Shown here: positions 7,026-61,587 of the stretch, in pieces
How positions within the stretch are numbered: position 1 is the first letter of the stretch
How the letters are laid out: every line of letters begins with the position of its first letter
Assembly: GCA_964641465.1 (NCBI GenBank)
Contig: CAZXLW010000005.1
Location: forward strand, 49,081-113,080
From: an uncultured Pirellulaceae bacterium
Lineage (GTDB): Bacteria > Planctomycetota > Planctomycetia > Pirellulales > Pirellulaceae
Direction: 5' to 3'
DNA: 64,000 nt
Notes under the pieces: model-generated
What the model saw: only the letters and a program-made list of their open reading frames with translations
The model's database searches: none
Told to the model about the DNA's origin: nothing
Program-made: the position numbers and the translations under genes

Positions 7026-7033
7026 TCCATTCT

Positions 7034-45148: not shown

Positions 45149-47098
45149 TTAAACGTCGATCTCTCCGGCGTCTTCGGCGCGGTTCATGATGAAGTGGAAT
45201 CTTGCCATGGCGTCTTTGCCCATCAAGTCACTGATCACTCGGTCCGTTTCCAGTTGATCGTCAATTTCGACTTTCAACAAACGACGCGTTTTCGGATTCA
45301 AAGTCGTTTCCCACAACACTTTTGGCATCATCTCGCCCAAGCCCTTAAATCGCGTGATCTCTGGGGTCGAACGACCGTCGCCATGTTCTTCCAGGATTCG
45401 GGCTCGGTCTTCTTCGTCGGCGGCCCAGTGAGTTGTTTTCCCGATATCAATTCGAAACAACGGTGGCACGGCAATATACAAACAGCCGTTGGCAATCAAT
45501 TGAGGCATATGGCGATAAAAGAAGGTTAACAACAAAGTTGTAATATGGTGACCGTCCGAATCGGCATCCGCCAACAAGATGATGCGGTCGTACCGCAGAC
45601 CGGCCATATTCATCTTGGGGCCAATCCCACATCCAATGGCGGTAACCAGGTCCTGGATCTCTTTGTTCTCCAGGATTTTCTTCATGGTCGCGTTTTCAGT
45701 GTTCAAGACTTTACCACGCAACGGCAGGATCGCCTGGTTGTTGCGATCACGACCCTGTTTGGCCGACCCGCCAGCCGAGTCACCTTCGACAATAAACAGC
45801 TCGGAATCGCCTCGTCCTGAATTCAGGCAATCGCTCAACTTGCCCGGCAGCATAGATCGTTTGCCGCCAGTCTTGCGAGAAACCGCAGCGGAAGCAGCCC
45901 GCGACGCCGCCCGCGCACGAGCCGCAGCAATGATCCGTGCGATGATCCCGTCGGCAGTCTCCCGATTGTTGTTCATCCACTGTTCGAGGGCAGGGCGGAC
46001 CGCCCCGTCAATCATACTTTGCACTTCCGCGTTGTTCAGTCGATCCTTGGTTTGCCCCTGGAATGACGGTTCAGCGATAAAGATCGAAACGATCGCAACC
46101 ATACCTTCGCGAATATCATCCGGCAGAATCTTCACACCACGCGGGATCAAGTTGTGCATGTCAAAGTAGTTTCGCACCGCCTTGTTCAAGCCAGCTCGGA
46201 AACCGTTTTCGTGAGTTCCACCGCTACCGGTCGGGATCCCGTTTACATACGAGCGGACGTGCTCGTCGGTCGATTCAGTCCACTGCAACGCGAACTCGAA
46301 ACGATCGGGATCGGAAACGCTCAACGTAAACGGCGCTTCGTGAATCGGATTGGCCTCGCGCTGTTTGCAAATCTTGGCGAGGTAGTCAACGATCCCGTTC
46401 TCGTGAAAGAAGGATTCCTTCTTGCCATTCACATCGTCGATGAAATTGACTTTCAGGCCACGGTGGAGAAAGCTGGCAATTTCCAAGCGTTGTCGAACTG
46501 TGTCGGGATTGAACTGGGTGCGGGGGAAGATCGTCGGATCTGGTGAAAACGAAATCGAAGTCCCGGTCCCTCGTACATTCCCTTTCAGTTTCTGCAGCTT
46601 GGTCTTGGCGTGCCCTTTGGCAAATTCCATTTTGTACTGCGCCCCTCCGCGCCGTACGACTGCGACCAGTTTCTTCGAAAGCGCGTTGACGACAGACGCA
46701 CCAACGCCGTGCAAACCTCCGGCCGTTTTATAATTGTCGCCGTCAAATTTACCGCCAGCATGCAGAACGGTAAGCACCGTTTCCAAAGCACTCTTTTTGG
46801 TCTTGGCATGTTTGTCGATTGGAATGCCGCGTCCGTTGTCGGAAACCGTGACCGATTCGCCATCCTTGTGAAGCTGCACCGTGATCTCGGTCGCGTGCCC
46901 GTTCATGGCCTCGTCGATCGAGTTATCCATGATCTCCCAGATCAAGTGATGCAAACCGGCGGACTGAACGCCGCCAATGTACATGCCTGGGCGTTTGCGA
47001 ACGGGTTCCAAGCCCTCAAGGACCGTGATATTTTCGCTTTGATACGATTTGGCCTTGGTGGATTTCGTTTTCGATTTCGATTTGGTAGCTGTGGGCAT
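45149..47098 (-). CDS. Type IIA DNA topoisomerase B subunit (GyrB/ParE family; probably ParE-like)
   Basis: 649 aa with 'VLEGLEPVRKRPGMYIGG', 'HLIWEIMDNSIDEA', the TOPRIM motifs 'ELFIVEGDSAGGSA' and 'ILLADADSDGHHI'. It has an unusual N-terminal 'MPTATKSKSKTKSTKAKS'. Confidence 0.93.
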   Translation of the reverse strand: MPTATKSKSKTKSTKAKSYQSENITVLEGLEPVRKRPGMYIGGVQSAGLHHLIWEIMDNSIDEAMNGHATEITVQLHKDGESVTVSDNGRGIPIDKHAKTKKSALETVLTVLHAGGKFDGDNYKTAGGLHGVGASVVNALSKKLVAVVRRGGAQYKMEFAKGHAKTKLQKLKGNVRGTGTSISFSPDPTIFPRTQFNPDTVRQRLEIASFLHRGLKVNFIDDVNGKKESFFHENGIVDYLAKICKQREANPIHEAPFTLSVSDPDRFEFALQWTESTDEHVRSYVNGIPTGSGGTHENGFRAGLNKAVRNYFDMHNLIPRGVKILPDDIREGMVAIVSIFIAEPSFQGQTKDRLNNAEVQSMIDGAVRPALEQWMNNNRETADGIIARIIAAARARAASRAASAAVSRKTGGKRSMLPGKLSDCLNSGRGDSELFIVEGDSAGGSAKQGRDRNNQAILPLRGKVLNTENATMKKILENKEIQDLVTAIGCGIGPKMNMAGLRYDRIILLADADSDGHHITTLLLTFFYRHMPQLIANGCLYIAVPPLFRIDIGKTTHWAADEEDRARILEEHGDGRSTPEITRFKGLGEMMPKVLWETTLNPKTRRLLKVEIDDQLETDRVISDLMGKDAMARFHFIMNRAEDAGEIDV

Positions 47099-47177
47099 GG
47101 TGTGTTGCAGATTCTGGTTTGTTTCAAATCCGATTTTGTAATTTGCAATAGCTGGTGGAGACCACCGTCAGCGGTAA

Positions 47178-49700
47178 CTAACTTTCGGAACTTACCGGTT
47201 TCAGTTCGCCAGGCGGCTTGATTGGGGGCCAGACGATTTTGGCAATCTTGCCGTTCTTCTGGATCTCATTTCCCTTGCCACCGCGAGACGTCGTGCGGTA
47301 CTTGGCAGTGGAGATTGTTTTCTGTGCTCCGCGATTGGTTTCGACGACCAGCAAGTCCCGATCACCTGTCGATGGTTTGAACCCAAGCAACTTGTCTGTC
47401 TTGGCCAACTTGATCAGCGTGACGCCTTTGCCTGCACCGGAGAGGTAATTGATGTCTTCGGTTGGACAAATAACGGCTCGGCAGTCCTGCGAGATTGCCA
47501 GGATCGTTTCGCTGCTGTCGATCGCATAGACACCGATCAACTCGGCACCCTTGGTAGCCCTCGCATAACGCCGTCCGCTACGCGTCGACGGCTCGACAAA
47601 CATCTCCAGCCCGAATCGCAGCGCGAAACCGTTGCTCGATGCAGCCAATCCATGCTTGTCGGGTAAGTATTCAGGCTGTTTGGGATCGGCGTAAACGTCG
47701 CCGATCACGCGGGGATCGAACGACAACATGGCGACAATCCGTTCGCCATCCTTCAAGCGGAAAATCTTTTGAATCGGATCGCCAAATCCTGTGGACGCTG
47801 GAATGTCAGCCATGCGGGCGGTGTAACAAACTCCGGTGGATGAAAAGAACCCAACCGTATTTCGTGTGGAACCACCCACGCAAGCCAAAACCGCATCGCC
47901 TTGTCGCAGTCGACTCTTGGCCGGATCAGCAATGTTCCGCTGACGTTTCACCCAGCCGTCTTTGGTGATCAAGACGTGACATTCTTCGTTGACAATAAAG
48001 TCTTCGGCGCTGATTTCGACTTCTTCCGAAACCGCTTCGATCTTCGTTCGGCGTTTGGCGTCCGGCAGTTTGCAATAGGTAGTGATCAACTCCTGAATTT
48101 CAGTTCGCACAATGGCCCAGCGTCCGGACGCGTTGGTGTCGGCGGTATCTTCTTTCAACAGCTTCCGGATCTCGCGTGCGCGTTTTTCTTTCTTTTTCAG
48201 CTCATCGAGGACGAGGTTGATTTCCAGCTTCGCCAAACGATACAACTTCAATTCCAGGATCGCTTCCGTTTGTTCGGCGTCCAGTCCGGTTTGTTTTCCT
48301 TTTCCTTCCTTGAGCGGGAAGCGTTTCATGATCTTGACGGCCGCGTCCGCTTTCCCATCGCTGCGACGGATGATTTTGATGACTTCGTCCAACACGTCGA
48401 AGATGGTGACAAAACCACGGAGGATATGAATCCTCTTTTCCAACGCCGCTAACTCGTTTTGCAGTCGCCGGGTGACAACGTCCAGTCGAAACTGCAGGAA
48501 ATACCAAAGCGCTTCCTTCAAACCCAATCTCTCGGGGCGACCAACGTCCGGGTTTTCTGTCGGGACCAGACAGGTCAAGTTGACGTTAAAGTTTGTTTGC
48601 AGTTGCGTATTCTTGTACAGAAACGCCAGGACTTTGTCCGGGTCCGCGTCTTTTTTTAGTACCAAATCGATACGAATGTCATCGGTCGAAAGATCACGAA
48701 CTTCGGTGACTAACGGCAGCTTACTGGAATAAACCAGGTCTGAAATCCGCTCCACCAAGCTGGCTTTGTTGACCGCATAAGGAATCGAGGTGATCTGCAA
48801 AACCCGGCCGGTTTTCTTATTGCCGCCGATAAGCTTGCTTTGCCCACGAGTCGTAATCGCGCCTTGTCCAGTGCGATAAATTTCACGCAACTCTTCCTTG
48901 CTGTTAATGACTTGCCCGCCCAACGGGAAGTCAGGACCTTGAACGGCATCCTGGGCTACCAATTGATAGTCTTTGATCTCCGGGTCCTTTAACAACTTCA
49001 AACAGGCGTTGCAAAGTTCCTTCAAGTTGTGAGGTGGAATGTTGGTCGCCATGCCAACTGCGATTCCGGTCGCTCCGTTGAGCAACAGGTTCGGTATGCG
49101 GCTTGGCAACACCACGGGCTCTTCGCGGCTGCCGTCATAGTTGGGGCGGAACGCGACCGTCAGCGTCGAGAGATCGGTTAACAGTTCGCCGGCAATTCGC
49201 GTCCGGCGACATTCGGTGTATCGCATTGCCGCCGCGTTGTCGCCGTCGATCGAACCAAAGTTCCCGCTGCCGTCGATGAGCGGCATACGCAGCGAGAATG
49301 GTTGAGCCATCCTTACCAAAGCGTCATAGATCGAACTATCGCCGTGCGGATGGTAGTTCGCCATCGCGTCACCGACGACCTTCGCGCTTTTGCGATGCTT
49401 GGCGTTGTGGTCGAGGCTAAGCTGCCGCGTGGTATACAGGATCCGACGCTGCACCGGCTTCATGCCGTCGCGAACATCCGGCAGCGCTCGGGACGTGATT
49501 ACTGACAGCGAGTAGTTCAGATAACGGGTTTGAGCGGCCAGTCGCAGCGGAACGTTTTCCAGTCCCAACGTTTCGGCTTCATCAAACAGAGCGCGCTGCT
49601 TTCCGTTTTGCTTGCCATTCGATCTGGCTTTGCTTGCCGATTTACTTTTCGAGCCAGATTTCTTGCTGGCTTTCTTTTTTACGGGCCGGCGTTTTGCCAC
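47178..49700 (-). CDS. Type IIA DNA topoisomerase A subunit (GyrA/ParC family; probably ParC-like)
   Basis: 840 aa with '[19 protein letters not shown]', '[17 protein letters not shown]' and the active-site 'AAMRYTE'. There is no GyrA-box in the first C-terminal blade. It carries a 40-aa Lys/Ser-rich N-terminal extension. Confidence 0.93.
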
Positions 49701-50031: not shown

Positions 50032-51882
50032 TCAATCCGTAAGAATGGCACCGCACGACTGGAAATGGGTTCGCTGTGCCTCGTCGTAGTTCGCACCACG
50101 CAGGTCGACAAGGTAGAAGTCGACATCTTTCACGCGCGCACCGATCAGATCGCAACCTTGCAGGCTGGCTTTGCGAATATCTTCGATTCGCCGGAAATGC
50201 TGGTCAAAGTAATCATCGGTGTAAAACCCGGTTCTGGTCCCGTGCGAAGGGTACGGACTTCCCACGATTCCGCTGCGAGTCGAACCGTAGTGAAACTGGC
50301 AACCGGAAAAGTCGACGCCTCGCAAATTGCAGTTCGTCCAGACGATGTCACCCAGCTTCGCACACGTGAGCAGGCTGTCGGTTAGATCGCAATCATGCAA
50401 TTTGGATTCCGAAAAATCTGCATCAGATATCTGACAACCACGTAAACAAATGTTGTCCAGAACGATTCCCGCGAAGTTGCTTCTAGACAGATCGCACTTC
50501 AGAAAATACGTGTCACGGGTCACGACATGTCGCAGATCAACTTGTGAGATTGACGTACGTTTGAACTTCGTACCAACCAGCGTAGCACCAGACATTTTGC
50601 TTCGGTTCAGTTTCGCAAAAAACAAAGTTGCGAAATTCAAATTCGCATTTCGAAGGTCTGCTCCGAGAAAGTCCGTTTTGCAGAAACCGCCACGTTCCAG
50701 ATTCGCGTTGGATAAGCATGCGCTTGAGAAATCCGCTTTGTCAGCATTGACGCCGCGGAGGTTGGCATCGGAAAAGTCTGCATGCTTGGCGACCAGTTTC
50801 TCGAGATTGCTGTTCGTCAAATTGGCACTAGCGAAACTACTGCCAGTGACATTCGTATTCGCGAGACTGCAGAACGGCAGATTGGCTTTCATAAAAATGG
50901 CCATCGTGACCAGAGAATTTTCAAGAATCAGCTCTGGTGCTCCGAAACCCGGTAACTGAGCACCGAACAAATTCAGTTCGCGTTGCCGGGACGGCTGCCA
51001 TGTTGAGTCCAGCTTGAAGAGCAGGCTGGCTGCGTTTCCTGAGTGACTATCCCAGACCTTGTTGGCCAGAGTGTTCAGGTGTTCAACGGCGTCATCGTTT
51101 GTTTCCGCAAACAATCGGCTGGCAAAATACTCGATCCAGATCGGCGTCACCATCCGCGCCAGACACTCGGGCGTTTTTCCTTGCCGTAACGATTCGATCA
51201 GTTTACCGGTGGCGATCACGTACCGCACCGTTTGGACACTCAAGAACTTTACGGTTTCCTCGTCTACGTAGCGTGGGGCGAACTTCTGCAACTCGATGCC
51301 GGCATTGACATCATCAAAATGATGTTCAACGCATTTGGAAATGACTCGGCCGCGGTATTGTTTGTGCTTGAAACGCAGCGATTCAAAGTGAGTCAGAATT
51401 GCCGCCTCGATAGTTGCAACGTCATCCTGTTCGATCATCACGTCGAGTGTTCTGGCCAGCACACGAGGAGAACCACTGGCGAGCCAAAGATCTTCGCTCA
51501 CCATCAATCGGCCCATGACGGACTTGCACCGATCCGGAGCCGTTGCCAGTAAGTAGTCAATGCAATCGTCCCGCGACCACCGGGCCAATTTCAATTTAAC
51601 ACTACCGTGTGTAAACGAAGGTGCCGTATAAACGGTCAAGTCCCATGCTTTCAGGTCTTCGATGGATTCGCCGTTGTCCAGGAATCGGAGTTTCGGTTGG
51701 CCAGTGAAATAATTTTGCAAATGGGCGATGGCAGTTGATTTGCCTTCACCAACCAGTCTGACGGCCAGAGTCTTCGAGTCAATGTAATCTGAAATGAGGT
51801 CAACCAACGGTACCACTTCACCATCGGAGTTATAGGTCCTTGGCTCGACCGCTGCGACGAAATTTTCAGGTGGCTTGGACAA
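50032..51882 (-). CDS. Pentapeptide-repeat protein with a ~300-aa N-terminal domain carrying a P-loop-like motif
   Basis: 616 aa. 'VRLVGEGKSTAIAHL' (GxGKST) lies near aa 45. From about aa 300 there are long runs of A(D/N)LxX pentapeptides ('ANLTNSNLEKLVAKHADFSDANLRGVNADKADFSSACLSNANLERGGF...'). The C-terminal 'FYTDDY...LQGCDLIGARVKDVDFYLVDLRGANYD' is typical of the family. Confidence 0.85.
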   Translation of the reverse strand: MSKPPENFVAAVEPRTYNSDGEVVPLVDLISDYIDSKTLAVRLVGEGKSTAIAHLQNYFTGQPKLRFLDNGESIEDLKAWDLTVYTAPSFTHGSVKLKLARWSRDDCIDYLLATAPDRCKSVMGRLMVSEDLWLASGSPRVLARTLDVMIEQDDVATIEAAILTHFESLRFKHKQYRGRVISKCVEHHFDDVNAGIELQKFAPRYVDEETVKFLSVQTVRYVIATGKLIESLRQGKTPECLARMVTPIWIEYFASRLFAETNDDAVEHLNTLANKVWDSHSGNAASLLFKLDSTWQPSRQRELNLFGAQLPGFGAPELILENSLVTMAIFMKANLPFCSLANTNVTGSSFASANLTNSNLEKLVAKHADFSDANLRGVNADKADFSSACLSNANLERGGFCKTDFLGADLRNANLNFATLFFAKLNRSKMSGATLVGTKFKRTSISQVDLRHVVTRDTYFLKCDLSRSNFAGIVLDNICLRGCQISDADFSESKLHDCDLTDSLLTCAKLGDIVWTNCNLRGVDFSGCQFHYGSTRSGIVGSPYPSHGTRTGFYTDDYFDQHFRRIEDIRKASLQGCDLIGARVKDVDFYLVDLRGANYDEAQRTHFQSCGAILTD

Positions 51883-52422: not shown

Positions 52423-52935
52423 TCAGTTCTGAGCGTTATTGCGGAACGTGATTTTTTCGATCAGTGTTTTGACCGAATCGTCGGGCATGACTTTGCCGGA
52501 AACAGCACCGATGGCTCTTACGGTGTATTGATACTTGAGCGAGTAGTCGATATCGAACTCGACTTCCACGTCGTCTGCGGACGATGGATCGGAGTTGCCG
52601 GCCAGGACCGATTCGACAAAGTTTGTCAAATCGGAAAACATCGTTTGGCCGGTAAGTTGTTGAGATTGCAATTGATCGTCAACATCGATGTTCGCGATGT
52701 CTCCATCCGCCCCGGCATTCAGTTTGACAGTGATCAACGTCTTCAGGTTTTCGTCGATCGTCTCAGATGGTGGCTCGATGGCTGCCAATGGCATCCGCAC
52801 ATTGAAATCGCCTTCCAATGCAACGATTTTGAAAGTCATGATGAAGAATACCAATAGCTGAAACACGACGTCGATCATCGCCGTCATGTTCAATTTGACT
52901 TCTTCGTCTTGTTGGCTTCCACCGCCAAATCTCAT
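52423..52935 (-). CDS. ExbD/TolR-family biopolymer transport protein
   Basis: 170 aa with 'LNMTAMIDVVFQLLVFFIMTF' and then a periplasmic domain. Confidence 0.85.
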   Translation of the reverse strand: MRFGGGSQQDEEVKLNMTAMIDVVFQLLVFFIMTFKIVALEGDFNVRMPLAAIEPPSETIDENLKTLITVKLNAGADGDIANIDVDDQLQSQQLTGQTMFSDLTNFVESVLAGNSDPSSADDVEVEFDIDYSLKYQYTVRAIGAVSGKVMPDDSVKTLIEKITFRNNAQN

Positions 52936-53019
52936 GATATCTTTCGCTCGAGTTCTTTCGTTTTCGGTTCGTTCATGCTTCAGGCTGTATTTCGAATCGT
53001 GTTCGTCTCAGTAGTCCAG

Positions 53020-53463
53020 TCAGTCGACTCGTTCCTTGACTCGAAACGAAAAATTCTCCAGCTTCAGTGACTGGCACTTGGTCATCAGTTCCTGGACCAG
53101 CCCGGTAGGCGTATCCTGGTGCGATCGAATGATGACGGCGATTTCGCCCGGCGGGACATTCTCACGTTGCGCCGCCGAGATTTCGCGATTCAACAGGCCG
53201 GTGAGGAATTCTATCTGAGGGACTTTCTGTCCAGAAAATTTCACGCTGCCATCGGGAAGCAAATTCAAAATGATCTGATACTCCGGCCGTGTCTCAGGTG
53301 GACGGGCCAGTTGATGGGCCGGTAACAGAATCTCTTCAGCACGATCGACTTCTGAGAAATTGATCAGCAGCATGAAAAACGCGATCAACTGGAACGTGAC
53401 GTCGATCATCGGCGTCAGGTCCGCTTCCAGAATGCCAGAGTCTGTTTTTTTTCGAAACTTCAT
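53020..53463 (-). CDS. ExbD/TolR-family biopolymer transport protein
   Basis: 147 aa with 'DLTPMIDVTFQLIAFFMLLINF' and C-terminal 'IAVIIRSHQDTPTGLVQELMTKCQ'. Confidence 0.85.
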   Translation of the reverse strand: MKFRKKTDSGILEADLTPMIDVTFQLIAFFMLLINFSEVDRAEEILLPAHQLARPPETRPEYQIILNLLPDGSVKFSGQKVPQIEFLTGLLNREISAAQRENVPPGEIAVIIRSHQDTPTGLVQELMTKCQSLKLENFSFRVKERVD

Positions 53464-53490
53464 ATCTTGTTGGTCGTTGCTCGTGCGCGA

Positions 53491-54291
53491 TCAGGCTTCG
53501 GTCTTGGTTCCGACTTTCTCGAACCGGTTCATCAAACGATCGCTGGTTATCCCGACTTCCAGAACCTGTCGTTGAATGATATTGCGAATGATGTTGAACG
53601 CTGCGATGGCCGGGATCGCGATCGCCAGACCGATCAGTGTTGTTAGCAGGGCCGTTGAAATACCGGATGCCAGTTTGGTGGCGTCGGGCGCGGTGCCGCC
53701 TAATGCGATGACCTGGAACGATGTGATCATTCCGTGAACCGTGCCGAACAAACCGATCATCGGGCTGATGGTTCCAATCAAAGCCAGATAGCTGAGGCGG
53801 TGATCCAGTTTCAGGCTCTCTTCTTCGCCCACTTCCTGCATGGAATCGACGGCGCTTTGGTAGCTGCCGGATAGCTTGGCCATCCCGGCGGCCAGAACGT
53901 TGCCGAGGAATGACTCGTCAGCTTTCGCCAGCTCGTATGCTTCCTGATATTGTTTCTGATCCAGATGAGCTTCGAATCCTTCGATCAGGTGCTGGGGGCA
54001 AACATAGTCCCGTCGCGCGGCAAGGATGTTCATGATCAGGAATGCAAAGAAGACGAATGACAAAGCGAGGAAGATCAGAATGTATCCCCAACCCAGCGAT
54101 TCGATCAGCCACGTCAGAACATTCTTGGAAGGCTGAGCAGTCTCGGCAGCTCCGTCCTGGGCAAACGCCAGGTCGGCTTGCCAGGCCGCGAGAATCCCGA
54201 TCATTGCAAACAGGACTAATTTGAATTTCGCCATTTTGGCAACGCTTCTCGAACCCATACTCTCCTCAATTTCCGCTGCAACAATCTGCAC
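53491..54291 (-). CDS. MotA/TolQ/ExbB-family proton channel with signal peptide
   Basis: 266 aa with 'LIGTISPMIGLFGTVHGMITSF' and 'GISTALLTTLIGLAIAIPAIAAFN'. The N-terminal 'MAKFKLVLFAMIGILAAWQADLAFAQ' suggests the true start is one of the internal ATGs (codon 12 or 20). Confidence 0.88.
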   Translation of the reverse strand: MQIVAAEIEESMGSRSVAKMAKFKLVLFAMIGILAAWQADLAFAQDGAAETAQPSKNVLTWLIESLGWGYILIFLALSFVFFAFLIMNILAARRDYVCPQHLIEGFEAHLDQKQYQEAYELAKADESFLGNVLAAGMAKLSGSYQSAVDSMQEVGEEESLKLDHRLSYLALIGTISPMIGLFGTVHGMITSFQVIALGGTAPDATKLASGISTALLTTLIGLAIAIPAIAAFNIIRNIIQRQVLEVGITSDRLMNRFEKVGTKTEA

Positions 54292-54511
54292 GTTCGGTAT
54301 CTGCCCTTAAATCAAAACGCCAATTTTAGGGCAATGTTGTGTTCATTCAATTGTCGAAACCAGCGAATGTGCGACAGGTTCCGCTAATTCTGTGGAAGTG
54401 GGTTGAGACGCAGGGATCTACCCGTTTGTCGACAAAAACCAAAGTTAGTCACGAAAATATTTCTCATAACGGCTTGTGTATCGACAGATAACTCAAGCTT
54501 GGCTTGGTTTC

Positions 54512-55606
54512 TTACAATTTTGAAGCCCAGATTGAGCTTCGGTATCTGGTCGTCAGCAATTCTCGGGCGCGATTGGCTCGTTCGGTTTCTTTGAGCTGGG
54601 GCCAGATCTGCGTCAAGTTATATAGCGCTTCTGCGTGAGCATCGGCCTCTGTCGGGAATAGTAGCTCGGTATGCAGGAACGCCCGACATGCTTTCTTTAA
54701 ATCGCCCGATTTCACGTAGCAGGTTCCCAGCGCGTTGTAGGCAGAAGCAAACAGCTTGGTGTTGTCCGCGTTCTCGTCCTGGATGATCTTTTCCAACTGG
54801 GCGATTGCTGGCTCGAAATTTCCTTCCAGCGCCGCGATTTTGGCTAGTTGGCACGTGGCAAGCAATTTGTATTGCCGAGCATTGGCACTGCTTCCGTCCA
54901 TTCCGGCCAATGCCTGGTAGCTCTTTTTGGCAGACGCGAAATTGCCCTGGTGGACTAGCGTTTCACCTTCATAAAAATGTCCGCGAAGTTCATAGTCTTC
55001 CCATTGCGACTTGGTTAGCTTGTTGAATTCTTTTTGAGCTTGTTGTGTCTTGCCGTTGGCGACCAACAGTTGGGCATACAGTTCGACTACTGGGACCAGT
55101 CGATACGAATCACTGTTGGATTTGACGAAGCCTCCAACCAATTGCTCAGCAGCTTGAGTCGTGATTGCCGGATCGCCGCGCAGTGATTTCTTGCCGGATG
55201 CCATTGCCTCCAGGTACTGCATCTCCTGTTTTGCGAATTTAGATTTCGGAGCTTCATCAATCTTGGCGAGTGTTTTCAGGCAATCGTCGAACCGATCGCT
55301 TTCAAGATGATCCCGGGCCCGACCAATATTTCGAGGTTCGCCAGCGAAGCTGATCTTGTTGATTTCGCTGGCCGGAATTTCTTTCTGGGATCCGTTATCG
55401 TCGATCGTAACCTTGAACGCGGACGTCGCAACGACCTTCCCGCGAACCAGGCTGTTGCCACCCCGCTTGCCTTTACGATAGATATTATCTTTCTGTCCGA
55501 ATCCCACGGAAGCTGACAAAGAAACCGACACAACGACGATCGCCACAAGCATCGGTCGCACGGTGAAAGTTTGCTGGCTGACGTATGAATCAGATTGCAT
55601 TGTCAT
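54512..55606 (-). CDS. Membrane-anchored TPR protein of ExbB-ExbD-ExbD module 2
   Basis: 364 aa with TM 'VRPMLVAIVVVSVSLSASVGF', a short beta segment 'LVRGKVVATSAFKVTIDDNGSQKEIPASEINKISF', then clear TPR-like repeats ('GNFASAKKSYQALA', 'GNFEPAIAQLEKII', 'GDLKKACRAFLHT'). Confidence 0.75.
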   Translation of the reverse strand: MTMQSDSYVSQQTFTVRPMLVAIVVVSVSLSASVGFGQKDNIYRKGKRGGNSLVRGKVVATSAFKVTIDDNGSQKEIPASEINKISFAGEPRNIGRARDHLESDRFDDCLKTLAKIDEAPKSKFAKQEMQYLEAMASGKKSLRGDPAITTQAAEQLVGGFVKSNSDSYRLVPVVELYAQLLVANGKTQQAQKEFNKLTKSQWEDYELRGHFYEGETLVHQGNFASAKKSYQALAGMDGSSANARQYKLLATCQLAKIAALEGNFEPAIAQLEKIIQDENADNTKLFASAYNALGTCYVKSGDLKKACRAFLHTELLFPTEADAHAEALYNLTQIWPQLKETERANRARELLTTRYRSSIWASKL

Positions 55607-55624
55607 TTGCAGTTCCGTTGGTTC

Positions 55625-58600
55625 TTAATTCATGGATTTGATTTGTTGCGTCATTTTTGCCTCAAGCGCTTCGAACTTGGGTTTCCATTGCGGTCCGCCG
55701 AGTGCCGGGGTCTTGGTCTTGGCAATTTTTAAACGCTTCTGAGCCGCTTGCACGACTTTGGAATTTTTCTCGATGACGCCGTATTCAAACCGAGTCGAGA
55801 CAGCGGCGAAAACAGATTTGAAGTACGCGTCTGAAAGGTCCGGGTTCGATTTCAAAGCGTTGGCCAACTTGGTCCAGCCCCAGATCAGATTCTTCTCGCG
55901 TCCGTTATCGGGGTCTTTGAATCGTTCGGTACCGCCGAGGGCTTTGGCCAGCGGCTTCGAAGTTTTCGTTTGCGTGCCCCAGCGTTGCAAAGTCGAGGCA
56001 GCGTCCAATTGCAGCTGCCAGGAATTAGGTGTTTGCTTTAATAATGCGATCAAGTCTTTTATCGCGTCTTCGAATTTGCCGGACCCACGCTTGGCGAGGG
56101 CTTGCTGTCGTTTGAGTTCGCCCAACAATCGTGGTTCTTTGATACCCATTTTTGCCGCCCGATCCAGCGCGCTGGCCGCCGAAGCATAGAGCGATTTCGC
56201 TTCCTTTTCTTTGGACTGCGCGACGAACATGTCGCCGAGGCTCATGTATGTCTTGCCGGTCCAGATGATCGTGTTGGGATCCGTGGACTCGGACTGCAAC
56301 GCGTTGAGGAACTCGTTCAAGTTCTTGACAAACGCCTGTTGATCCTTGGGGTCTTTGATGGTGTCCAGTTGTTTTTCCAGCTCGACAGCAATCAAGCGAT
56401 ACATATTGCTGACATCTTTTTTCATTGCCTGGTCACCCGCCTTGTCGGCTCGGGTCTGCATCGCTCGAACAACCGCCAGCGCCTTGTCGGCCCAGTTGCC
56501 CGGTAGCGACTTGTCACCAAGAGCAGCCAGGTAGACTTTGCCTGCCGATTTGTATGTTTCGGAAACAAACAGGTCGCTGCGTCCGTTCTGAAACACAACC
56601 GGATGTTTCAGCTTGACAAGATCGACGGGCGCTATTGTTTCCGATTCGAGTTGTTTGACGGCGGCGCTGACGTTGCCGGATTCCAAATGCGCGTTTACCA
56701 GAAACAGCGAACCCCAGACAGCGTCCATCGACAGGTTGTCGCGCGTGAATGACTTGACTCCACTCGACAAATACTCGGTCGCGAAGTCGAGCCGTGTGGC
56801 CAATTGGTCGGTGTCTTCCTGTCCGGCTTTCTTTTTGCGTTGATAAACGAACCAGAGCTTGGTTCCCAGTTTGATATCCAACAAAGCTCGTTTCGGTGAG
56901 TCCGCCGGGATGCTGTCAATCAGTTGACTGGCCGTGGCGATTTCAGCGTCCGTCAGCGATGGCTTGGAAAGCAGCAACTTGGTCAGCGTCGATGTCGCCT
57001 CCGATGCCTCTGTCGAACCTGGCCATTGTCCGCTCACTTTCTGAGCCAGATCCTGCAATCGTTCTCGTTCAAAGTCACGACTTTCTGGATCCGCTTTGTC
57101 GTGCATCGCTGCATAGCTGCGGACGGCGATGCTGCCCGCCTGTTTGCTAAACGCGATCGTTGGATAACGACTGACCAGGAATTCGCCAATCAGGGCTGAT
57201 TCGAAATAGTTGCCGGCAACGAAGTGACAAATACTCTGCAGGTAACGGATCTGGTTTCGGTCTTCGCGAGTTGTCGTCGAATCCGCCAGCAGCAACGCTC
57301 GATCAAATGTTGCCAGACACGATTGGGTCCGCGATTTTAGTTGTCCTTCCAAATCAGACAGCTGTTCTTTGATGGCTGGGTCTGCCGATGGAGATTGCAA
57401 CTGACGCTTCGCATCACTGACGTCCGCAAACAGTCCTTCGATTTCCGTAACCAAATCGAGCCCACGTTGTTTCGCCTCGGCAAACGTATTAACCGGTTTG
57501 GAATCGACAGGTGCTCTCTCAGCCGTTGAGCTAATGTTGAGATTCCATTTTGCCATCAAGTCACGAGCTGCGTCACGATGTTTGCCGGGCAGTCGAGCCA
57601 GTCCCTTGATCAGCTTTGACGCGTCGCGGAAAAAGTTTTTGATGCGGCCGTCGCTGGGGTCGGTCAGTTTTAAGTCGGTAGCTTTGGCGTGGTAGGCGCG
57701 GGCCAGTTCCATTTGAATGCGTTGCCAATCTGGCTCTCTCAAGTCGTTTCGAGTCAACTTTTGGCTGATCGGTTCGACGTTGGCAATCACGTCGTTGAAC
57801 GGATACGGATCCGTTTTTGACCAGCAATCGGCGGACAGTGCGAGTGCTTGCCGCTTGATGCTTTTGAGCGAACCACTGCCCCCGAGCGCCAATAGCTCCT
57901 GGAGCAAATTCAATGCGGTCGTGTACGATCCCATTTTGTGATGGCATCGTGCGGCGAAGAAGCAGGAATAGATACCGGCGTGGTAGCGTGGATACTTCCC
58001 CCATAGTTCTTCAAACTCTGTGGCTGCTCTTTCAAGGCTTTGTTTTCGTTCAGGATTGTTGTCTTCCAGAGTGTCCGCATAACGTTCGACAATTTGCGGC
58101 ACGTTCATACGGACGACGGTGAAGGTCTCGCGTAGCTTTTTGAGTTTCGATTTCGAGTTTGCATCACGCAGGTCGACTTGGCTGTTGTCCAGAATGGTTT
58201 TGTAAGACGTTCGCGCACGGCCGAAAGCATCCAGTGCCTTTTTCAAGAACTCCCGTGCTTTGGCAAATTGTGATTCTTTTTCCCCGGCTGTCAGTCGTTC
58301 GTTGTCAGCCTGATTCAGATACAAGTTGGCTCGTCGGAACAGCAAGTCGCCCTGATTCTTTTGCGACTGCGCCTTCAATTCTGCATTGGCGGCCGACGAC
58401 TCGGATGCAGCCAGAAGTTTTTCCGCAGAATCAAGACGTTGTTCAATCGCCGCAACCTCTCGCATCCGAGACGTGCTGTCGATCAGAGTTTGCGCACGCT
58501 CAAACGGGAGCGACTGCTTGAACGCAGCCGACGCCAGTGGACTGGACTCCATGTCCTGCAAGTAGTCCAGCGCGATGTCGTGGTATCCTTGATCGCGGAG

Positions 58601-58705
58601 TGCCTGCAGGAAACGCTCGCTGGGTTCGTCGCCATGCGTGGCTGACAACGAACAAATTGCGCACAGTCCAATTGCAAAACGAGCGATAAACGCCGTAGGT
58701 TTCAT
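55625..58705 (-). CDS. Large secreted helical-repeat (TPR-like) protein, first gene of ExbB-ExbD-ExbD module 2
   Basis: 1026 aa with signal peptide 'MKPTAFIARFAIGLCAICSLSATHG'. It is all-helical repeat-like. The N- and C-terminal regions resemble those of the 833-aa protein at 2669..5170 by eye. Confidence 0.75.
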   Translation of the reverse strand: MKPTAFIARFAIGLCAICSLSATHGDEPSERFLQALRDQGYHDIALDYLQDMESSPLASAAFKQSLPFERAQTLIDSTSRMREVAAIEQRLDSAEKLLAASESSAANAELKAQSQKNQGDLLFRRANLYLNQADNERLTAGEKESQFAKAREFLKKALDAFGRARTSYKTILDNSQVDLRDANSKSKLKKLRETFTVVRMNVPQIVERYADTLEDNNPERKQSLERAATEFEELWGKYPRYHAGIYSCFFAARCHHKMGSYTTALNLLQELLALGGSGSLKSIKRQALALSADCWSKTDPYPFNDVIANVEPISQKLTRNDLREPDWQRIQMELARAYHAKATDLKLTDPSDGRIKNFFRDASKLIKGLARLPGKHRDAARDLMAKWNLNISSTAERAPVDSKPVNTFAEAKQRGLDLVTEIEGLFADVSDAKRQLQSPSADPAIKEQLSDLEGQLKSRTQSCLATFDRALLLADSTTTREDRNQIRYLQSICHFVAGNYFESALIGEFLVSRYPTIAFSKQAGSIAVRSYAAMHDKADPESRDFERERLQDLAQKVSGQWPGSTEASEATSTLTKLLLSKPSLTDAEIATASQLIDSIPADSPKRALLDIKLGTKLWFVYQRKKKAGQEDTDQLATRLDFATEYLSSGVKSFTRDNLSMDAVWGSLFLVNAHLESGNVSAAVKQLESETIAPVDLVKLKHPVVFQNGRSDLFVSETYKSAGKVYLAALGDKSLPGNWADKALAVVRAMQTRADKAGDQAMKKDVSNMYRLIAVELEKQLDTIKDPKDQQAFVKNLNEFLNALQSESTDPNTIIWTGKTYMSLGDMFVAQSKEKEAKSLYASAASALDRAAKMGIKEPRLLGELKRQQALAKRGSGKFEDAIKDLIALLKQTPNSWQLQLDAASTLQRWGTQTKTSKPLAKALGGTERFKDPDNGREKNLIWGWTKLANALKSNPDLSDAYFKSVFAAVSTRFEYGVIEKNSKVVQAAQKRLKIAKTKTPALGGPQWKPKFEALEAKMTQQIKSMN

Positions 58706-58833
58706 ACTCTTTTCCCGATGCTCTAGTGAGACTTCTATTATCGAGTCGCATGGTCAATATTTCAACGGCGAAGGTGAATCAGTTGTTGCGATATTGCGGT
58801 ACTTTTCGAGCAGAATCGCGGTAAAATTAAGTT

Positions 58834-60138
58834 ATGGATTTCAATCTTCAACCCGATTCTCATTCGACAAACCGAGCGAATGAACGTCCGCCCAACTATT
58901 TTTCTGCTTCTGTCAAACTGCGGCTGGCCACGTTGGTGGCGGCGTTGGGTTTGGTTTTTCTTGCGATGAACGAAGCCGGTAAACCCGCAACTTGGGAACG
59001 ATTGGGTTTCGCGGATTCAAACGAGCAATCGGAACAGCCTGCTGAGGCCAACGCCGGTGTGATCCAGGTCACAGAGCATTTGCCTCGTCGTCAATCGTCG
59101 GAAGATGTGAGTTCTACTCTCCAGAAATTTTGGGGGCAGCAGATTCTGAAGTTCGACAAAATTGAAAAGCAGAAATTGTCGGATCGTTTGCGGTCGTTGC
59201 AGTCCGGAGGATCCGAATCATTTGAAGGGTCGCTCGGTGGCGGGATTGAACGGGGACTCGAACAGTTTTTGCAGGAGGCCCGGGACGTCGATCCGGATTC
59301 GATCGAGATGGTGGAACGATCTGTCCGTTCGATTGTGGGGAAGTCCTCAAGTCATTCGGACGCCGATTTGCAACAGGTCCGCAGTGTGCTTGATCGGCAT
59401 GCCTACGGTTTGGTCGAAGATCGTTCTTCCATGAATCGTTCGGTTGAAAGCCTGGCCTGGAATCGGACCTGGGAGAATGTGTTTGACCAAGGCAATGTAG
59501 CCGAGTTCGAGCCCGTCTCGTATTTGCAACTATCGGGGCAACCAGGGGCTTATCGCGGGAAGCCAATTCGAGTTACCGGAATCGTACGCGGGGCACAGAC
59601 GTTGCCGCTTCCTGATGAACACAAGTTGGGCCTGAATGCTTATCAGGTTCTCTGGGTCAAACCAGTTGGTTCCAATCGAACTCCATTTTGTATTTACGCG
59701 GCCAAGTTGCCAGACGGTTTTCCAAACCCTGGCGATCAGTTTTTGACTCTTGACGAAGAGGTGGTTGTCGATGGCTACTTCTTCAAGTTGCGTTCCTATG
59801 AAGCGACCAATAATCAAGTCGAGATTTGTCCGTTGATCGTTGCCGACAAAGTCGTGTGGAACCAAAAGACTGACCAAGTCGCGGGAGCAACTCCATCATG
59901 GGAGCCTCCGCGTTGGTTGTTGGTCCTGTTCTTCGTCGGCATGCCGGTGTTGGCTGGGGTAATGGCGTTGAGCGTTTATCGGTCGACTCGATCGTTGCGT
60001 CGTTCGTATTCTGAGGTAGCCGAAGAAGTGGAGTCGAATCTTGGGCAACTGGTCAATGATCAGAGTGTGATGTCAGATCGCGAGCGGATGGCAGAGTTTT
60101 CCAGGTCGATAGATCGCACAGACCGCGAGATATCCTGA
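58834..60138 (+). CDS. Bitopic membrane protein (TM near both termini), unknown function; paralogue of the next gene
   Basis: 434 aa with an N-terminal TM 'LRLATLVAALGLVFLAM' and a C-terminal TM 'WLLVLFFVGMPVLAGVMALSVY'. The conserved block 'YRGKPIRVTGIVRGAQ...CIYAAKLPDGFP...VVDGYFFKLRSYEA...ICPLIVADK' is shared with the 482-aa neighbour. Confidence 0.7.
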   Translation: MDFNLQPDSHSTNRANERPPNYFSASVKLRLATLVAALGLVFLAMNEAGKPATWERLGFADSNEQSEQPAEANAGVIQVTEHLPRRQSSEDVSSTLQKFWGQQILKFDKIEKQKLSDRLRSLQSGGSESFEGSLGGGIERGLEQFLQEARDVDPDSIEMVERSVRSIVGKSSSHSDADLQQVRSVLDRHAYGLVEDRSSMNRSVESLAWNRTWENVFDQGNVAEFEPVSYLQLSGQPGAYRGKPIRVTGIVRGAQTLPLPDEHKLGLNAYQVLWVKPVGSNRTPFCIYAAKLPDGFPNPGDQFLTLDEEVVVDGYFFKLRSYEATNNQVEICPLIVADKVVWNQKTDQVAGATPSWEPPRWLLVLFFVGMPVLAGVMALSVYRSTRSLRRSYSEVAEEVESNLGQLVNDQSVMSDRERMAEFSRSIDRTDREIS

Positions 60139-61587
60139 ATGCGACATCAAGCGAAGGCACTGCGAACAATTGCCAGAGTTCGTTTTCTAAGAGTTTGTTT
60201 TCTGTGTGTGTTGGTGCTGATCCTGTTGGCGATCGGCAGTGACTCGGCGAAGTCTCAGGATTCGCCGGCTGCGTTATCCGGATTTTCGTCTTCCGAGATT
60301 TTTGACATCACCGATGGGCGACCGTTGAAGATGCAGGATCCTGCCTTGTCGAGATTGCTGTTTCGCGTCATGCAGACTTCTCGGACAAGCCTGCGGAAAT
60401 ACGGTCAAACCGATGCAGGTGTCGGTGTTAAAGAAATTCGGTCGAGCCCCAGGGATTACCGGTGTCATGTGATCTCGATTGCTGGTTTGGCGACCGATTG
60501 TCTGACGATCCAGAATTCTCTGGCGGAGGAGGGCGAGCCTAACCAGCGCATAGTGCTCGTTCGGGTTGAAACGGAATCTGGCGAGGAGTGCGTTGTTGTC
60601 CTGCCGGCCAGTAGGGCGGATTTTGCCAACCGATGGCTAGCGAGTGAACGGATCCATGAGCCGGTCAAGTTTCAAGGTTTCTTCCTTGCCGTTTATGATT
60701 TCCATGCGGACGCAGAAGCGGATGCGGCGTTGCAGGTTCTGAATCTGAAACAGGCGGAGTGTCCAGTCTTGGTCGCCAATCAACTGGAATGGTATCCCGA
60801 CGGGAATAGCCAGGTGGCGACCACCATGTCGGAACAGTTGCTCGCAAAACATCGCGTTGACATTGGAGAAAAAATTGGACGCATGAACGGCAAGATGACG
60901 AAACAGGATTCCTTGCCGTTTTATCAACTGTTGGCCGCAGCGGATTCAATCGAAGCAGTGGGTTTTCCGACTGCGGAACAAGTTAAATTCACGGATTGTT
61001 TGCAGCGACCGAGGCAGTGTTTTCGCAAGCCAGTTCAAGTCCGTGGCCTGGTTCGTCAAGTCACAGAAGTCAAAGTATCCGATCCGCAAATCAATGCCGA
61101 GTTTGGGCTGAAGCGTTACTATCAACTGCAAATGTTTGTTCCGCTGAAGAACCAACAGATTGTTGTTCAGGCACCTCGCTCGGATGCGAACGGGTCAGCC
61201 GATGAGAATGACGGCAAGATTCGTCACGAGAACCGATTCCCGGTGACTGTTTGCGTGGCGAAATTGCCTGCCCCGATAGAGGAAGTCGAAGGCAAGTTGG
61301 CTGCAGTCGAGGGCTTCTTCTTTAAGCTCTGGAATTACGAATCCGAGTTGTCTCGTTCCAAGTCCGCGAGCCTGAATCAGATCAGTCCGCTGATCGTCGG
61401 GCAACAACCCAAGTTGATTGCCGATAGCAGCCAGGATCTGAATTGGTGGATTGGATTGGCCGCGTTGTTGGGGATAACTGGTATTGCGATGTTGGCTTGG
61501 TTTTACCGGCCCACCGAACAACGATCGGCAATTCGTTCTGATCTGCCGGATTCAATCGAGATGCCAGGCGATGATCAGGTTAGTTAA
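60139..61587 (+). CDS. Bitopic membrane protein, tandem paralogue of 58834..60138
   Basis: 482 aa with an N-terminal TM 'VCFLCVLVLILLAIG' and a C-terminal TM 'WWIGLAALLGITGIAMLAWFY'. It carries 'FRKPVQVRGLVRQV...VCVAKLPAPIE...AVEGFFFKLWNYES...ISPLIVGQQ'. The ATG directly abuts the upstream TGA. Confidence 0.7.
   Translation: MRHQAKALRTIARVRFLRVCFLCVLVLILLAIGSDSAKSQDSPAALSGFSSSEIFDITDGRPLKMQDPALSRLLFRVMQTSRTSLRKYGQTDAGVGVKEIRSSPRDYRCHVISIAGLATDCLTIQNSLAEEGEPNQRIVLVRVETESGEECVVVLPASRADFANRWLASERIHEPVKFQGFFLAVYDFHADAEADAALQVLNLKQAECPVLVANQLEWYPDGNSQVATTMSEQLLAKHRVDIGEKIGRMNGKMTKQDSLPFYQLLAAADSIEAVGFPTAEQVKFTDCLQRPRQCFRKPVQVRGLVRQVTEVKVSDPQINAEFGLKRYYQLQMFVPLKNQQIVVQAPRSDANGSADENDGKIRHENRFPVTVCVAKLPAPIEEVEGKLAAVEGFFFKLWNYESELSRSKSASLNQISPLIVGQQPKLIADSSQDLNWWIGLAALLGITGIAMLAWFYRPTEQRSAIRSDLPDSIEMPGDDQVS

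Follow-up and report, generated by a model that had tools for sequence, protein, structure and literature searches.

Two paralogous ExbB-ExbD-ExbD/TPR modules, candidate TonB-independent motors, in a Pirellulaceae bacterium

Results

Two five-gene modules, each with one ExbB/TolQ-family gene, two ExbD/TolR-like genes and two genes for helical-repeat proteins, lie on the minus strand of a 64,000-nt stretch of DNA from an uncultured, Mariniblastus-like Pirellulaceae bacterium (hereafter the window). BLASTP and profile comparisons show all five protein pairs to be, at the level of sequence, ancient paralogues. On balance we think it likely that each module would encode an inner-membrane motor of the ExbB/TolQ family, driven by the proton motive force, together with a dedicated periplasmic scaffold. 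The original prediction of a duplicated machine is supported: the two loci have related TPR proteins, neither is TonB or TolA and the genes are co-conserved.

Module 2 (58705..52423) starts with the genes for two helical-repeat proteins, a secreted-looking alpha-solenoid of 1026 aa (55625..58705; ORF list and AF2) and a secreted-looking medium protein of 364 aa (54512..55606; Pfam TPR matches and AF2). The motor genes follow, encoding an ExbB/TolQ-family proton-channel subunit (53491..54291; 266 aa from the longest start; PF01618, 97.8 bits), a first ExbD/TolR-like protein with its transmembrane Asp in MIDV (53020..53463; 147 aa; PF02472, 62.7 bits) and a second, divergent one that also has the transmembrane Asp (52423..52935; 170 aa; PF02472, 49.1 bits). 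Successive ORFs are separated by 18, 220, 27 and 84 nt, and the ORF list bears out the coordinates, strand and gaps first given for all five.

The intergenic region 5' of module 2 (58706..58833, minus strand) is shared with a divergent gene at 58834; its best promoter-like site (58765-58737), a consensus match only, agrees at 10 of 12 positions. Another such consensus match (54350-54323) lies in the gap that separates the motor genes from the TPR pair (54292..54511, minus strand), where a small hairpin (54506-54494) follows the stop of the 364-aa gene. Promoter-like matches were no more numerous than chance would give (5 vs 3.8 expected), and an Rfam search of the gap gave no match. Translation of ExbB probably starts at the ATG near 54258, after GAGGAG, which would lengthen the gap 3' of the 364-aa gene to about 250 nt. 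The comparable gap is ~180-200 nt in the relatives inspected (loci L001 and L005).

Module 1 (8071..2669, minus strand) has the same components with the large protein encoded last instead of first, as originally described. A secreted-looking 345-aa protein with a beta-domain and TPRs, the paralogue of the 364-aa protein (7034..8071), precedes an ExbB/TolQ-family subunit (6063..7025; longest ORF 320 aa; PF01618, 90.9 bits), two ExbD/TolR-like proteins (5628..6053, 141 aa, PF02472, 86.6 bits; 5167..5631, 154 aa, PF02472, 76.1 bits) and a secreted-looking alpha-solenoid of 833 aa, the paralogue of the 1026-aa protein (2669..5170). The second ExbD gene overlaps the preceding ExbD gene and the 833-aa gene by 4 nt each. 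The true start of module 1 ExbB is probably downstream of the longest-ORF start, since the gene called in a relative is 260 aa long.

Both ExbBs exceeded the Pfam MotA_ExbB cut-off of 22.9 bits, and the four ExbDs (49-87 bits) exceeded the ExbD cut-off of 25.4 bits. The TPMIDV motif expected of the ExbDs was found in all four, with its Asp, and is conserved throughout the four subfamilies. Signal-peptide-like N-termini, noticed earlier on both ExbBs, are conserved in both families and end A-x-A-Q-[E/D]. The ExbB threonines (TM2 GTV, TM3 TT) are invariant. The TM3 glutamate of ExbB/TolQ, which we take to be E176/E173 of E. coli, is replaced in both families: module 2 ExbB has Thr where E. coli ExbB has Glu176, and at this site the module-2 family has Thr, Lys or Gln and the module-1 family Gln, suggesting that the proton path may differ from that of ExbB/TolQ. 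Among PDB entries, ExbB and TolQ were equally close to module 2 ExbB. The best NCBIfam matches of the module proteins were TolQ (84 bits vs an equivalog cut-off of 221), TolR (at most 60 vs 127) and YbgF/CpoB (38 vs 90), and scores were also far below the ExbB and ExbD equivalog cut-offs.

The two ExbBs are 32% identical over 256 aa (BLASTP E 4e-33) and the first ExbDs 31% identical, again significant by BLASTP. For the second ExbDs the BLASTP match was confined to the N-terminal ~49 residues, and only profiles related them over their full length (E 6.8e-16). Pairwise BLASTP gave no significant match for either TPR pair, medium or large. When the medium families were compared by hhalign, they matched with a probability of 99.15 (E 3.8e-19) over 305 columns, starting with the N-terminal beta domain, which is not TPR, and reaching the C-terminus; this reproduced the earlier by-eye alignment of the 364-aa protein with the 345-aa protein in their N-terminal segments. 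Profile-profile comparison of the large families gave a probability of 99.9 (E 4.6e-36, 836 columns) and, in a second comparison, E 3.1e-31 over 794 columns. Medium and large matches both beat the TPR-versus-TPR background on the same families (best E 5.4e-11, 210 columns only). Paralogy holds for all five pairs, although the by-eye evidence was less strong than stated, as the TPR pairs lack significant BLASTP matches. The duplication is ancient, at 13-17% identity. The occurrence of two copies within 50 kb, initially used as an argument, is incidental and carries no weight, since the modules are ~750 kb apart in a related complete genome. A complete Mariniblastus MAG has both modules in the same gene orders.

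Both medium proteins match TPR in Pfam, and the large proteins give sub-threshold TPR matches only. The 1026-aa protein was modeled as an all-alpha solenoid (AF2, pLDDT 85.9) whose N-terminus resembles a signal peptide and whose two lobes of helical repeats (~29-386 and 408-1025) are joined by a disordered linker. Foldseek returned only generic TPR/HEAT scaffolds for this model, and the homologues of the protein are all unnamed or 'hypothetical protein'. The 364-aa model (AF2, pLDDT 91.9) has a five-stranded beta domain (residues 40-86) and ~8 TPR-like hairpins (residues 92-363); residues 54-87 match NCBIfam Lepto_7_Nterm at 24.8 bits, below the 43-bit cut-off. In the medium-family consensus A-Q comes right after the N-terminal hydrophobic stretch, and the N-terminus of the 364-aa protein is probably a cleaved signal peptide and not a membrane anchor. 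The label 'TM+TPR' given to it before is better replaced by signal peptide, beta domain and TPR, which is the more likely arrangement. Judged by eye, the medium and large proteins appear to be secreted. With 1485 representative clusters at E <= 1e-30, the medium family is large. Some relatives encode a medium and a large protein as one polypeptide; the natural fusions P0169 and P0196 each contain both proteins in full, suggesting that the two would form a periplasmic complex. The idea that the 364-aa, 345-aa or large TPR proteins are divergent TonB or TolA was rejected. RNA runs from the same study contained none of the sequence.

The module family is widespread over Pirellulales loci and both gene orders are conserved among relatives. 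Among testable module-2 loci, 62 of 67 have the large gene upstream and 51 of 63 have ExbB-ExbD-ExbD downstream. The module-1 order recurs among metagenome loci. Unrelated housekeeping neighbors (xerD-like, prmC and prfA) are also syntenic over many loci, so adjacency alone is weak evidence in this lineage; the argument for one system is carried by same-strand tight spacing and by the medium-large fusions.

As first reported for TonB-like and receptor genes, the ORFs of the window yielded no gene for TonB, for a TonB-dependent receptor or for a vWA protein. 'Five-part' describes the module-1 type incompletely, since module-1 relatives usually add a sixth gene, directly upstream in 20 of 26 testable cases. 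Its product combines a membrane helix like that of TonB/TolA (P-x-W-x-x-S-x3-H) with an acidic disordered linker and a vWA domain. The sixth gene remains beside the genes for the medium and large proteins when the motor genes are found elsewhere, and it occurs with a medium-large fusion in two-gene units that have no adjacent motor genes. A different S-x3-H/vWA protein adjoins a module-2-type TPR pair in Rubripirellula; at module-2 loci an adjacent transducer was found in only 1 of 80. The transducer gene was absent from the window and from 10 kb past its left end. In this genome the module 1 transducer, lost or relocated, does not adjoin its module, and none adjoins module 2.

Discussion

The sixth gene of module-1 relatives fits the class of 'vWA force transducer' put forward in 2025 (PMC12204202, Mol Biol Evol). 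That paper proposes TPR-tolQ-tolR-tolR-vWA clusters, with a membrane-tethered vWA protein, for the PVC group. Common to both is a cluster that combines a TPR gene with one TolQ/ExbB-like gene and two distinct TolR/ExbD-like genes, as is, in the 20 relatives, an adjacent protein with S-x3-H helix, disordered linker and vWA domain. In contrast, the window has no vWA gene, and the relatives carry theirs upstream of the TPR gene, not downstream of the motor genes. The TPR gene of those clusters is likened to the medium family by gene content, and the sections of the paper cited here do not mention an 830-1030-aa solenoid, a second module (large gene first, no vWA) or medium-large fusions.

The Agl-Glt core of Myxococcus and relatives (AglR, AglQ, AglS, GltD, GltE, GltG, GltC) is a precedent in which a TolQ pentamer and a TolR heterodimer act with a large and a small periplasmic TPR protein (PMC11761067, PMC3169522). 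It too has one TolQ-like and two non-identical TolR-like subunits, with a large periplasmic TPR 'pillar' (GltD) bound by a smaller TPR protein (GltE), the TPR parts being likened by description; in both cases the operon is conserved in non-gliding bacteria. Unlike this core, the modules belong to Pirellulales, lack GltC and a GltG/GltJ-type transducer (TonB C-terminal domain), and have a medium protein with an N-terminal beta domain, none being described for GltE. In the flagellar motor of Campylobacter and Helicobacter, the large periplasmic TPR proteins PflA/PflB set the position of a 5:2 motor that belongs to the same superfamily (PMC12222027, PDB 9hmf). Chain 9hmf_K was among the Foldseek matches of both models, but the resemblance is that of TPRs in general (TM-scores 0.18-0.45), the motor concerned is MotAB, as part of a flagellum, and the window has no flagellar context.

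By analogy with the model of AglR5-AglQ-AglS, an ExbB pentamer would enclose an ExbD heterodimer, and proton flow would move the helix of a transducer that docks on ExbB. The periplasmic domain of the transducer, or those of the ExbDs, might then act on the medium-large complex, which would span the periplasm and pass force or a conformational change to a target in the cell wall or outer membrane. The mode of action of such a motor would resemble that of Ton, Tol or the Agl-Glt core, but with no TonB, TolA, TolB or Pal and no TonB-dependent receptor.

The modules have the motor superfamily in common with Ton (ExbB-ExbD-TonB) and Tol-Pal (TolQ-TolR-TolA-TolB-Pal-CpoB), as well as the Asp of ExbD and the threonines of ExbB, and Tol-Pal has a TPR protein, CpoB, alongside its motor. 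The modules differ in having two ExbD paralogues, not one, ExbBs with signal-peptide-like N-termini and no TM3 Glu, and equivalog scores far under cut-off throughout. That their motor genes are ordinary Ton energizers, with TonB and receptors encoded elsewhere and the TPR proteins as accessories, is unlikely. Membership of the superfamily would allow it, tonB is often unlinked from exbBD (PMC12204202) and Vibrio TonB2 systems have a TPR accessory protein, TtpD (PMC6957404). However, TonB and its receptors are reported to be rare or absent in Planctomycetes: of the planctomycete genomes surveyed, only four yielded TonB and receptors, Pirellula and Blastopirellula having a single receptor apiece and R. 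baltica having none on record (PMC3422733), although the module family is widespread in Pirellulales. In relatives, moreover, the TPR pair is linked to the vWA transducer, not TonB. A planctomycete replacement for Tol-Pal, in which CpoB-like TPR proteins help to stabilize or constrict the outer membrane in budding or division, is doubtful. The best NCBIfam matches point that way, and the role is vacant in Planctomycetes, which lack Pal (PMC12204202 supplement). Against this, the TPR matches are generic, TolA, TolB and Pal are absent from the window, and no link from the modules to division genes was found.

It is also improbable that the modules form a surface machine of the Agl-Glt kind, by which an adhesin would be moved or exposed (in attachment, holdfast or surface translocation), with true GltD and GltE homologues as the large and medium proteins. 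GltG/GltJ, GltC and outer-membrane Glt genes are absent from the window, and we know of no gliding in Pirellulales. The parts list is the same, down to a TPR pillar of ~1000-1200 aa and a smaller partner (PMC3169522, PMC11761067), and vWA domains function in Myxococcus adhesion (PMC12204202), but the passage on core-complex taxa in the 2011 survey does not name Planctomycetes. The notion that the five genes are neighbors by descent only, and not one functional system, was already disfavored and is very improbable. The syntenic housekeeping genes would fit it, and the 220-250-nt gap, which contains a promoter-like site, may divide module 2 between two transcripts; yet two paralogous modules of different gene order have the same five-gene composition, their genes lie on the same strand and are tightly spaced, and medium-large fusions exist.

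The reading as a motor with a dedicated scaffold is the one we retain. The description as an uncharacterized system stands in that the module set lacks experimental characterization, but the class is not wholly undescribed, given the clusters proposed in PMC12204202. The modules resemble these recently proposed TonB-independent force-transducing systems.

Gene content of the two modules

The original prediction described five genes on one strand with a defined order and spacing, and an ORF scan placed all of them exactly as claimed. In module 2, the gene set at 58705..52423 on the minus strand, the gene for the large helical-repeat protein (1026 aa; 58705..55625) is followed by that for the medium protein (364 aa; 55606..54512), an ExbB gene (54291..53491), a first ExbD gene (147 aa; 53463..53020) and a second ExbD gene (170 aa; 52935..52423), all on the minus strand and separated in that order by 18, 220, 27 and 84 nt. 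Translation of ExbB probably starts at the ATG near 54258, which follows a GAGGAG sequence. The paralogous set, module 1, lies on the same strand (8071..2669) and encodes a medium protein of 345 aa, ExbB, two ExbDs and, last, a large protein of 833 aa.

The ExbBs of modules 2 and 1 matched PF01618 (MotA_ExbB) with 97.8 and 90.9 bits, respectively (cut-off 22.9), and found ExbB and TolQ structures in the PDB at E about 1e-12. The ExbDs matched PF02472 with 49-87 bits (cut-off 25.4). Pfam TPR matches were clear in the 364-aa protein and weak in the other TPR proteins. At the module 2 locus, Rfam gave no match and the count of predicted promoters and terminators was not above chance; RNA runs of the same study contain no sequence of the locus.

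The modules are paralogous

Between modules, BLASTP aligned the ExbBs at 32% identity over 256 residues (E 4e-33) and the first ExbDs at 31% identity (E 5e-16), while the match between the second ExbDs (E 2e-7) was confined to the membrane helix. Neither the medium pair nor the large pair was significant by pairwise BLASTP, so profiles were needed, and family alignments were assembled from database hits and fetched loci. Compared in this way, the medium families matched with a probability of 99.15 (E 3.8e-19) over 305 columns, from the N-terminal non-TPR segment to the C-terminus, a range that takes in the N-terminal segments originally aligned by eye. The large families matched with a probability of 99.9 (E 4.6e-36, 836 columns), and independently made alignments gave E 3.1e-31 over 794 columns. 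Because TPR proteins attract one another, the background was measured on the same families: medium against large profiles reached at best E 5.4e-11 over merely 210 columns. Both paralogue matches are far above this background and collinear end to end.

Profile comparison showed the ExbD subfamilies to be all mutually related (E 1e-14 to 7e-22), with the second ExbD of module 2 scoring slightly better against the first ExbD of module 1. Since the second ExbD cannot be assigned cleanly as an orthologue across the modules, we make no claim about the order of the duplications. The predicted paralogy holds by BLASTP for the ExbBs and first ExbDs and by profiles for the two TPR pairs; the second ExbDs are related too, with a less clear orthology. 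The predicted argument from proximity, that two copies within 50 kb point to a duplicated machine, did not survive. A complete Mariniblastus MAG (OZ253677.1) carries both modules in the same two gene orders about 750 kb apart, which indicates that the duplication is old and the spacing in the window incidental. Modules 1 and 2 are products of an ancient duplication.

Conservation in relatives

We found 182 confirmed relatives of the module 2 medium protein in a species-level genome collection. The best 80 of these are all from Planctomycetota, mostly from Pirellulaceae, Thermoguttaceae, Lacipirellulaceae and their allies. A merged medium profile, searched exhaustively with HMMER, returned 1485 representative clusters (E <= 1e-30); of these, the top 150 all cover essentially the whole profile and are nearly all 320-370 aa long. 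A survey of the neighboring families bore out their expected co-conservation: among module-2-type loci with enough sequence, the large gene lies directly upstream of the medium gene in 62 of 67, and ExbB-ExbD-ExbD lie directly downstream of it in 51 of 63. The module 1 gene order was found again in metagenome loci, and there are variant loci in which the medium and large genes are adjacent and the motor genes are missing. Homologues of the large protein are unnamed or annotated as "hypothetical protein."

A third arrangement (L002/L003, L047, L059, L065, L068 and L083) has a lone medium-type gene beside a gene for an alpha/beta hydrolase, together with a TPR protein of about 820 aa encoded on the opposite strand. 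At L002/L003 it adjoins the flagellar basal-body genes fliF, fliE, flgC and flgB and a sigma-54 regulator. The 820-aa protein was considered as a member of the large family and rejected, since its match is at the TPR background only.

Several other genes in the window were noted. A 1349-aa Ser/Thr protein kinase (9644..13693, minus strand) has extracytoplasmic matches to Poly_export (SLBB-like) and a Secretin_N-like domain; a homologue of equal length adjoins module 1 in the Mariniblastus MAG (L004) and is not found at L110/L111. Divergent from module 2 on the plus strand are genes for proteins of 434 and 482 aa (58834..60138 and 60139..61587) that are weakly paralogous (E 1e-4) and have no Pfam match. 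Each has a hydrophobic helix at either end and, between the helices, a conserved domain (…YRG…G.FFK…Y…PL…). Their homologues flank about 40 of 80 module 2 loci, a synteny no stronger than that of housekeeping neighbors, and as candidate transducers they were dismissed since the TonB-like helix motif is absent. A 616-aa pentapeptide-repeat protein (50032..51882, minus strand) is encoded between gyrA/gyrB (45149..49700) and module 2; its gene is beside module 2 in 1 of 80 loci and so is not conserved there. Farther away, the minus-strand segment 26690..34068 encodes a BlaI/Penicillinase_R-type repressor (33610..34068) and, after it, a 2306-aa protein in which an M56 peptidase domain of the BlaR1 type occurs together with a very long stretch of ankyrin repeats.

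Predicted structures and motor residues

In the AF2 model of the 364-aa protein (pLDDT 91.9), an N-terminal helix of low confidence (residues 18-31) and a beta domain of five strands (40-86) precede about eight TPR-like hairpins. This protein had been described as a membrane-anchored TPR protein. The TPR part stands, by both Pfam and AF2. The membrane anchor is less likely: the family consensus has A-Q straight after the hydrophobic stretch and lacks a conserved Cys, so that the N-terminus is probably a cleaved signal peptide. Residues 54-87 matched the NCBIfam model Lepto_7_Nterm, the N-terminal domain of LA_0442/LA_0875 (E 1.3e-5; 24.8 bits, cut-off 43), which hints that the small beta domain may also occur in Leptospira proteins. 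The 1026-aa protein was modeled (pLDDT 85.9, pTM 0.48) as two lobes of helical repeats with a disordered linker (390-401) between them. Foldseek searches of the PDB with both models returned generic TPR/HEAT scaffolds only, among them the periplasmic TPR scaffold from the flagellar motor of Campylobacter, and therefore gave no functional lead.

The membrane Asp of the predicted shared ExbD motif (MIDV) is kept in all four ExbD subfamilies, and the pore-lining threonines of ExbB (GTV in TM2 and TT in TM3) are invariant in 58 module-2-type and 17 module-1-type proteins. The TM3 glutamate of ExbB/TolQ (E. coli E176/E173), an important residue, is replaced in both ExbB families; the aligned residue is Thr in the module 2 ExbB of the window. 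At this position the module 2 family has T in 38, K in 9 and Q in 6 of 58 proteins, and the module 1 family has Q in 16 of 17. Both ExbB families have signal-peptide-like N-termini ending in A-x-A-Q-[E/D], in agreement with the cleavable-looking signal peptides seen at the outset.

A vWA gene and natural fusions at module-1-type loci

Unbiased clustering of neighbor genes detected a sixth gene. Coding for 320-380 aa, it directly precedes the module-1-type medium gene, with both on one strand, in 20 of the 26 loci of relatives that could be tested. In its product, an N-terminal helix with an invariant P-x-W-x-x-S-x3-H is joined by an acidic linker rich in Gly and Pro to a vWA domain (VWA_3, 28.6 bits, cut-off 27) that has a D-x-S-x-S MIDAS motif. 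The S-x3-H sequence is the core of the "SHLS" motif by which TonB and TolA bind their motors. The five parts of the predicted conserved composition do recur, and module-1-type loci usually add this sixth. The same helix-linker-vWA architecture was proposed as a "vWA force transducer" in Mol Biol Evol 2025 (PMC12204202).

Neither tblastn nor a six-frame profile search found a vWA gene in the window, and none was found within 10 kb beyond its left end. The gene is also missing in the nearest relatives (61% identity), which have a 228/237-aa gene in its place upstream of module 1. That gene was considered as a degraded vWA gene and rejected, as its motif (…PNHVHV…) is transposase-like. At the usual position of the vWA gene, the window has a 155-aa ORF (8257..8724) and an AAA ATPase ORF (8734..9609; Pfam AAA, 87 bits), both on the plus strand and in the same frame with a single stop between them. 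The segment 8257..9609 could be a replacement, or a split or pseudogenised gene. Another candidate transducer, a 179-aa ORF at 15362..15898, was set aside because its hydrophobic stretch with S-x3-H is C-terminal and it has no Pfam domain.

Among module-2-type loci, a vWA neighbor was found in one alone, L028 (Rubripirellula MAG OZ244207.1). The 635-aa protein encoded there (L028:11155-13209, minus strand) combines a TonB-like helix (GVISLLVH…) with a linker rich in Pro and Glu, a vWA domain (PF00092, 35.7 bits) and a C-terminal part that is long and helical. Its gene is convergent to a module-2-type large-medium pair, and the locus has no ExbBD genes. At E 1e-3 the protein is unrelated to the module 1 vWA family.

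Two of the best medium-family matches, P0169 and P0196, are fusions of about 1172-1173 aa that form separate entries in a library clustered at 50% identity. Each begins as an entire module-1-type medium protein and continues as a large protein that is complete but for the signal peptide; the large-family profile covers positions 40-850 of 851 (E 1.9e-225 and 5.4e-215). In two-gene units (L112:420-4996 and L113:6760-11522), a gene with the S-x3-H helix and vWA domain precedes the fusion gene, and ExbB/ExbD genes were not found near either unit. The vWA gene and the fusions together constitute Rosetta-stone evidence for one working unit, in which the medium and large proteins would act together in the periplasm with the vWA transducer.

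Comparison with known systems

Ordinary Ton energisation is one rival reading of the modules. The window ExbBs scored 62.7 and 45.3 bits against 206.2 for the NCBIfam equivalog, and the ExbDs reached at most 47.4 bits against 216 with one model and 46.4 against 152.95 with another. As predicted, a Pfam scan of ORFs in the 64-kb window found no TonB or TonB-dependent receptor; TolA, TolB and Pal were likewise absent from these ORFs. Envelope stabilisation of the Tol type is a second rival. The ExbBs scored 84.4 and 74.7 bits for TolQ, far below the cut-off of 221, and the scores for TolR (at most 60 bits against 127.3) and YbgF (at most 38.4 against 90.1) were also far too low. TonB and its receptors were detected in just four planctomycete genomes of those surveyed (PMC3422733), and Pal was not found in Planctomycetes (PMC12204202). 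R. baltica exbB (RB12053) and exbD (RB12055), potential counterparts of the genes described here, are induced by salt (PMC2754498). Pirellulales planctomycetes are mostly without TonB, TonB-dependent receptors and Tol-Pal.

Adhesin handling of the Agl-Glt type is a third rival; the Agl-Glt core also has one TolQ-like and two non-identical TolR-like proteins. The modeled large and medium proteins resemble GltD/GltE in architecture, and neither a GltG-type transducer, with its TonB C-terminal domain, nor GltC was found in the window. The vWA force-transducer cluster (PMC12204202), as in Tichowtungia, likewise shares with both modules a TPR protein, a tolQ-like gene and two heterologous tolR-like genes, whereas its adjacent protein with an SHLS-type helix, linker and vWA domain is missing at both window modules. 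The system was predicted to be uncharacterised; this holds for experiment, and the 2025 bioinformatic description partly anticipated it. A PADLOC scan that left out the module 1 ExbDs gave no membership in Zorya or other anti-phage defence, returning a weak superfamily match of ExbB to ZorA (E 2.3e-5, 21 bits) and a marginal one of the large protein to CARF_TM (E 5e-4, 17.7 bits), with no match for the remaining proteins of the scan.

Discussion

We have documented the parts of the two modules, their paralogy and conservation, the fusions and the link of module-1-type loci to a protein with a TonB-like helix and a vWA domain. The modules are a real, conserved, anciently duplicated system of the ExbB/TolQ-motor-plus-periplasmic-transducer type. 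Ton and Tol motors of solved structure and the modeled AglR5-AglQ-AglS complex suggest, by analogy, that an ExbB pentamer would enclose an ExbD heterodimer, that proton flow would drive a transducer docked on ExbB, and that the effect would be relayed through the periplasm by the medium-large TPR complex. In module 2 the transducer may be encoded elsewhere or be the one that serves module 1; alternatively, ExbD may work on the scaffold without an intermediary.

A broader proposal, which we put forward as doubtful, is that two paralogous machines specific to the lineage energise the outer envelope of Pirellulales. In either machine an ExbB5-ExbD heterodimer motor would work on a periplasm-spanning complex of two TPR proteins, via a vWA transducer or ExbD directly, and one or both machines could power a planctomycete-specific process. 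If this is true, candidate processes are the tethering of the outer membrane in budding and the uptake of macromolecules into the enlarged periplasm.

To our knowledge, 5:2 motors of the ExbB/TolQ/MotA type are the sole route by which inner-membrane energy reaches the Gram-negative outer envelope. The discovery of each new output module (Ton, Tol, flagellar stators, gliding, type IX secretion, Zorya) has started a research field. The family described here is large, conserved and without a phenotype, in a phylum of unusual envelope biology from which Ton and Tol-Pal are mostly missing. Its parts are clearly defined, natural fusions indicate interacting partners, and it exists in two paralogous versions, of which the module 1 type usually comes with a vWA protein and the other does not. 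With these features, three questions become open to direct test: what supplies the planctomycete outer membrane with energy, whether a vWA domain can substitute for the C-terminal domain of TonB/TolA, and what role the TPR scaffold plays.
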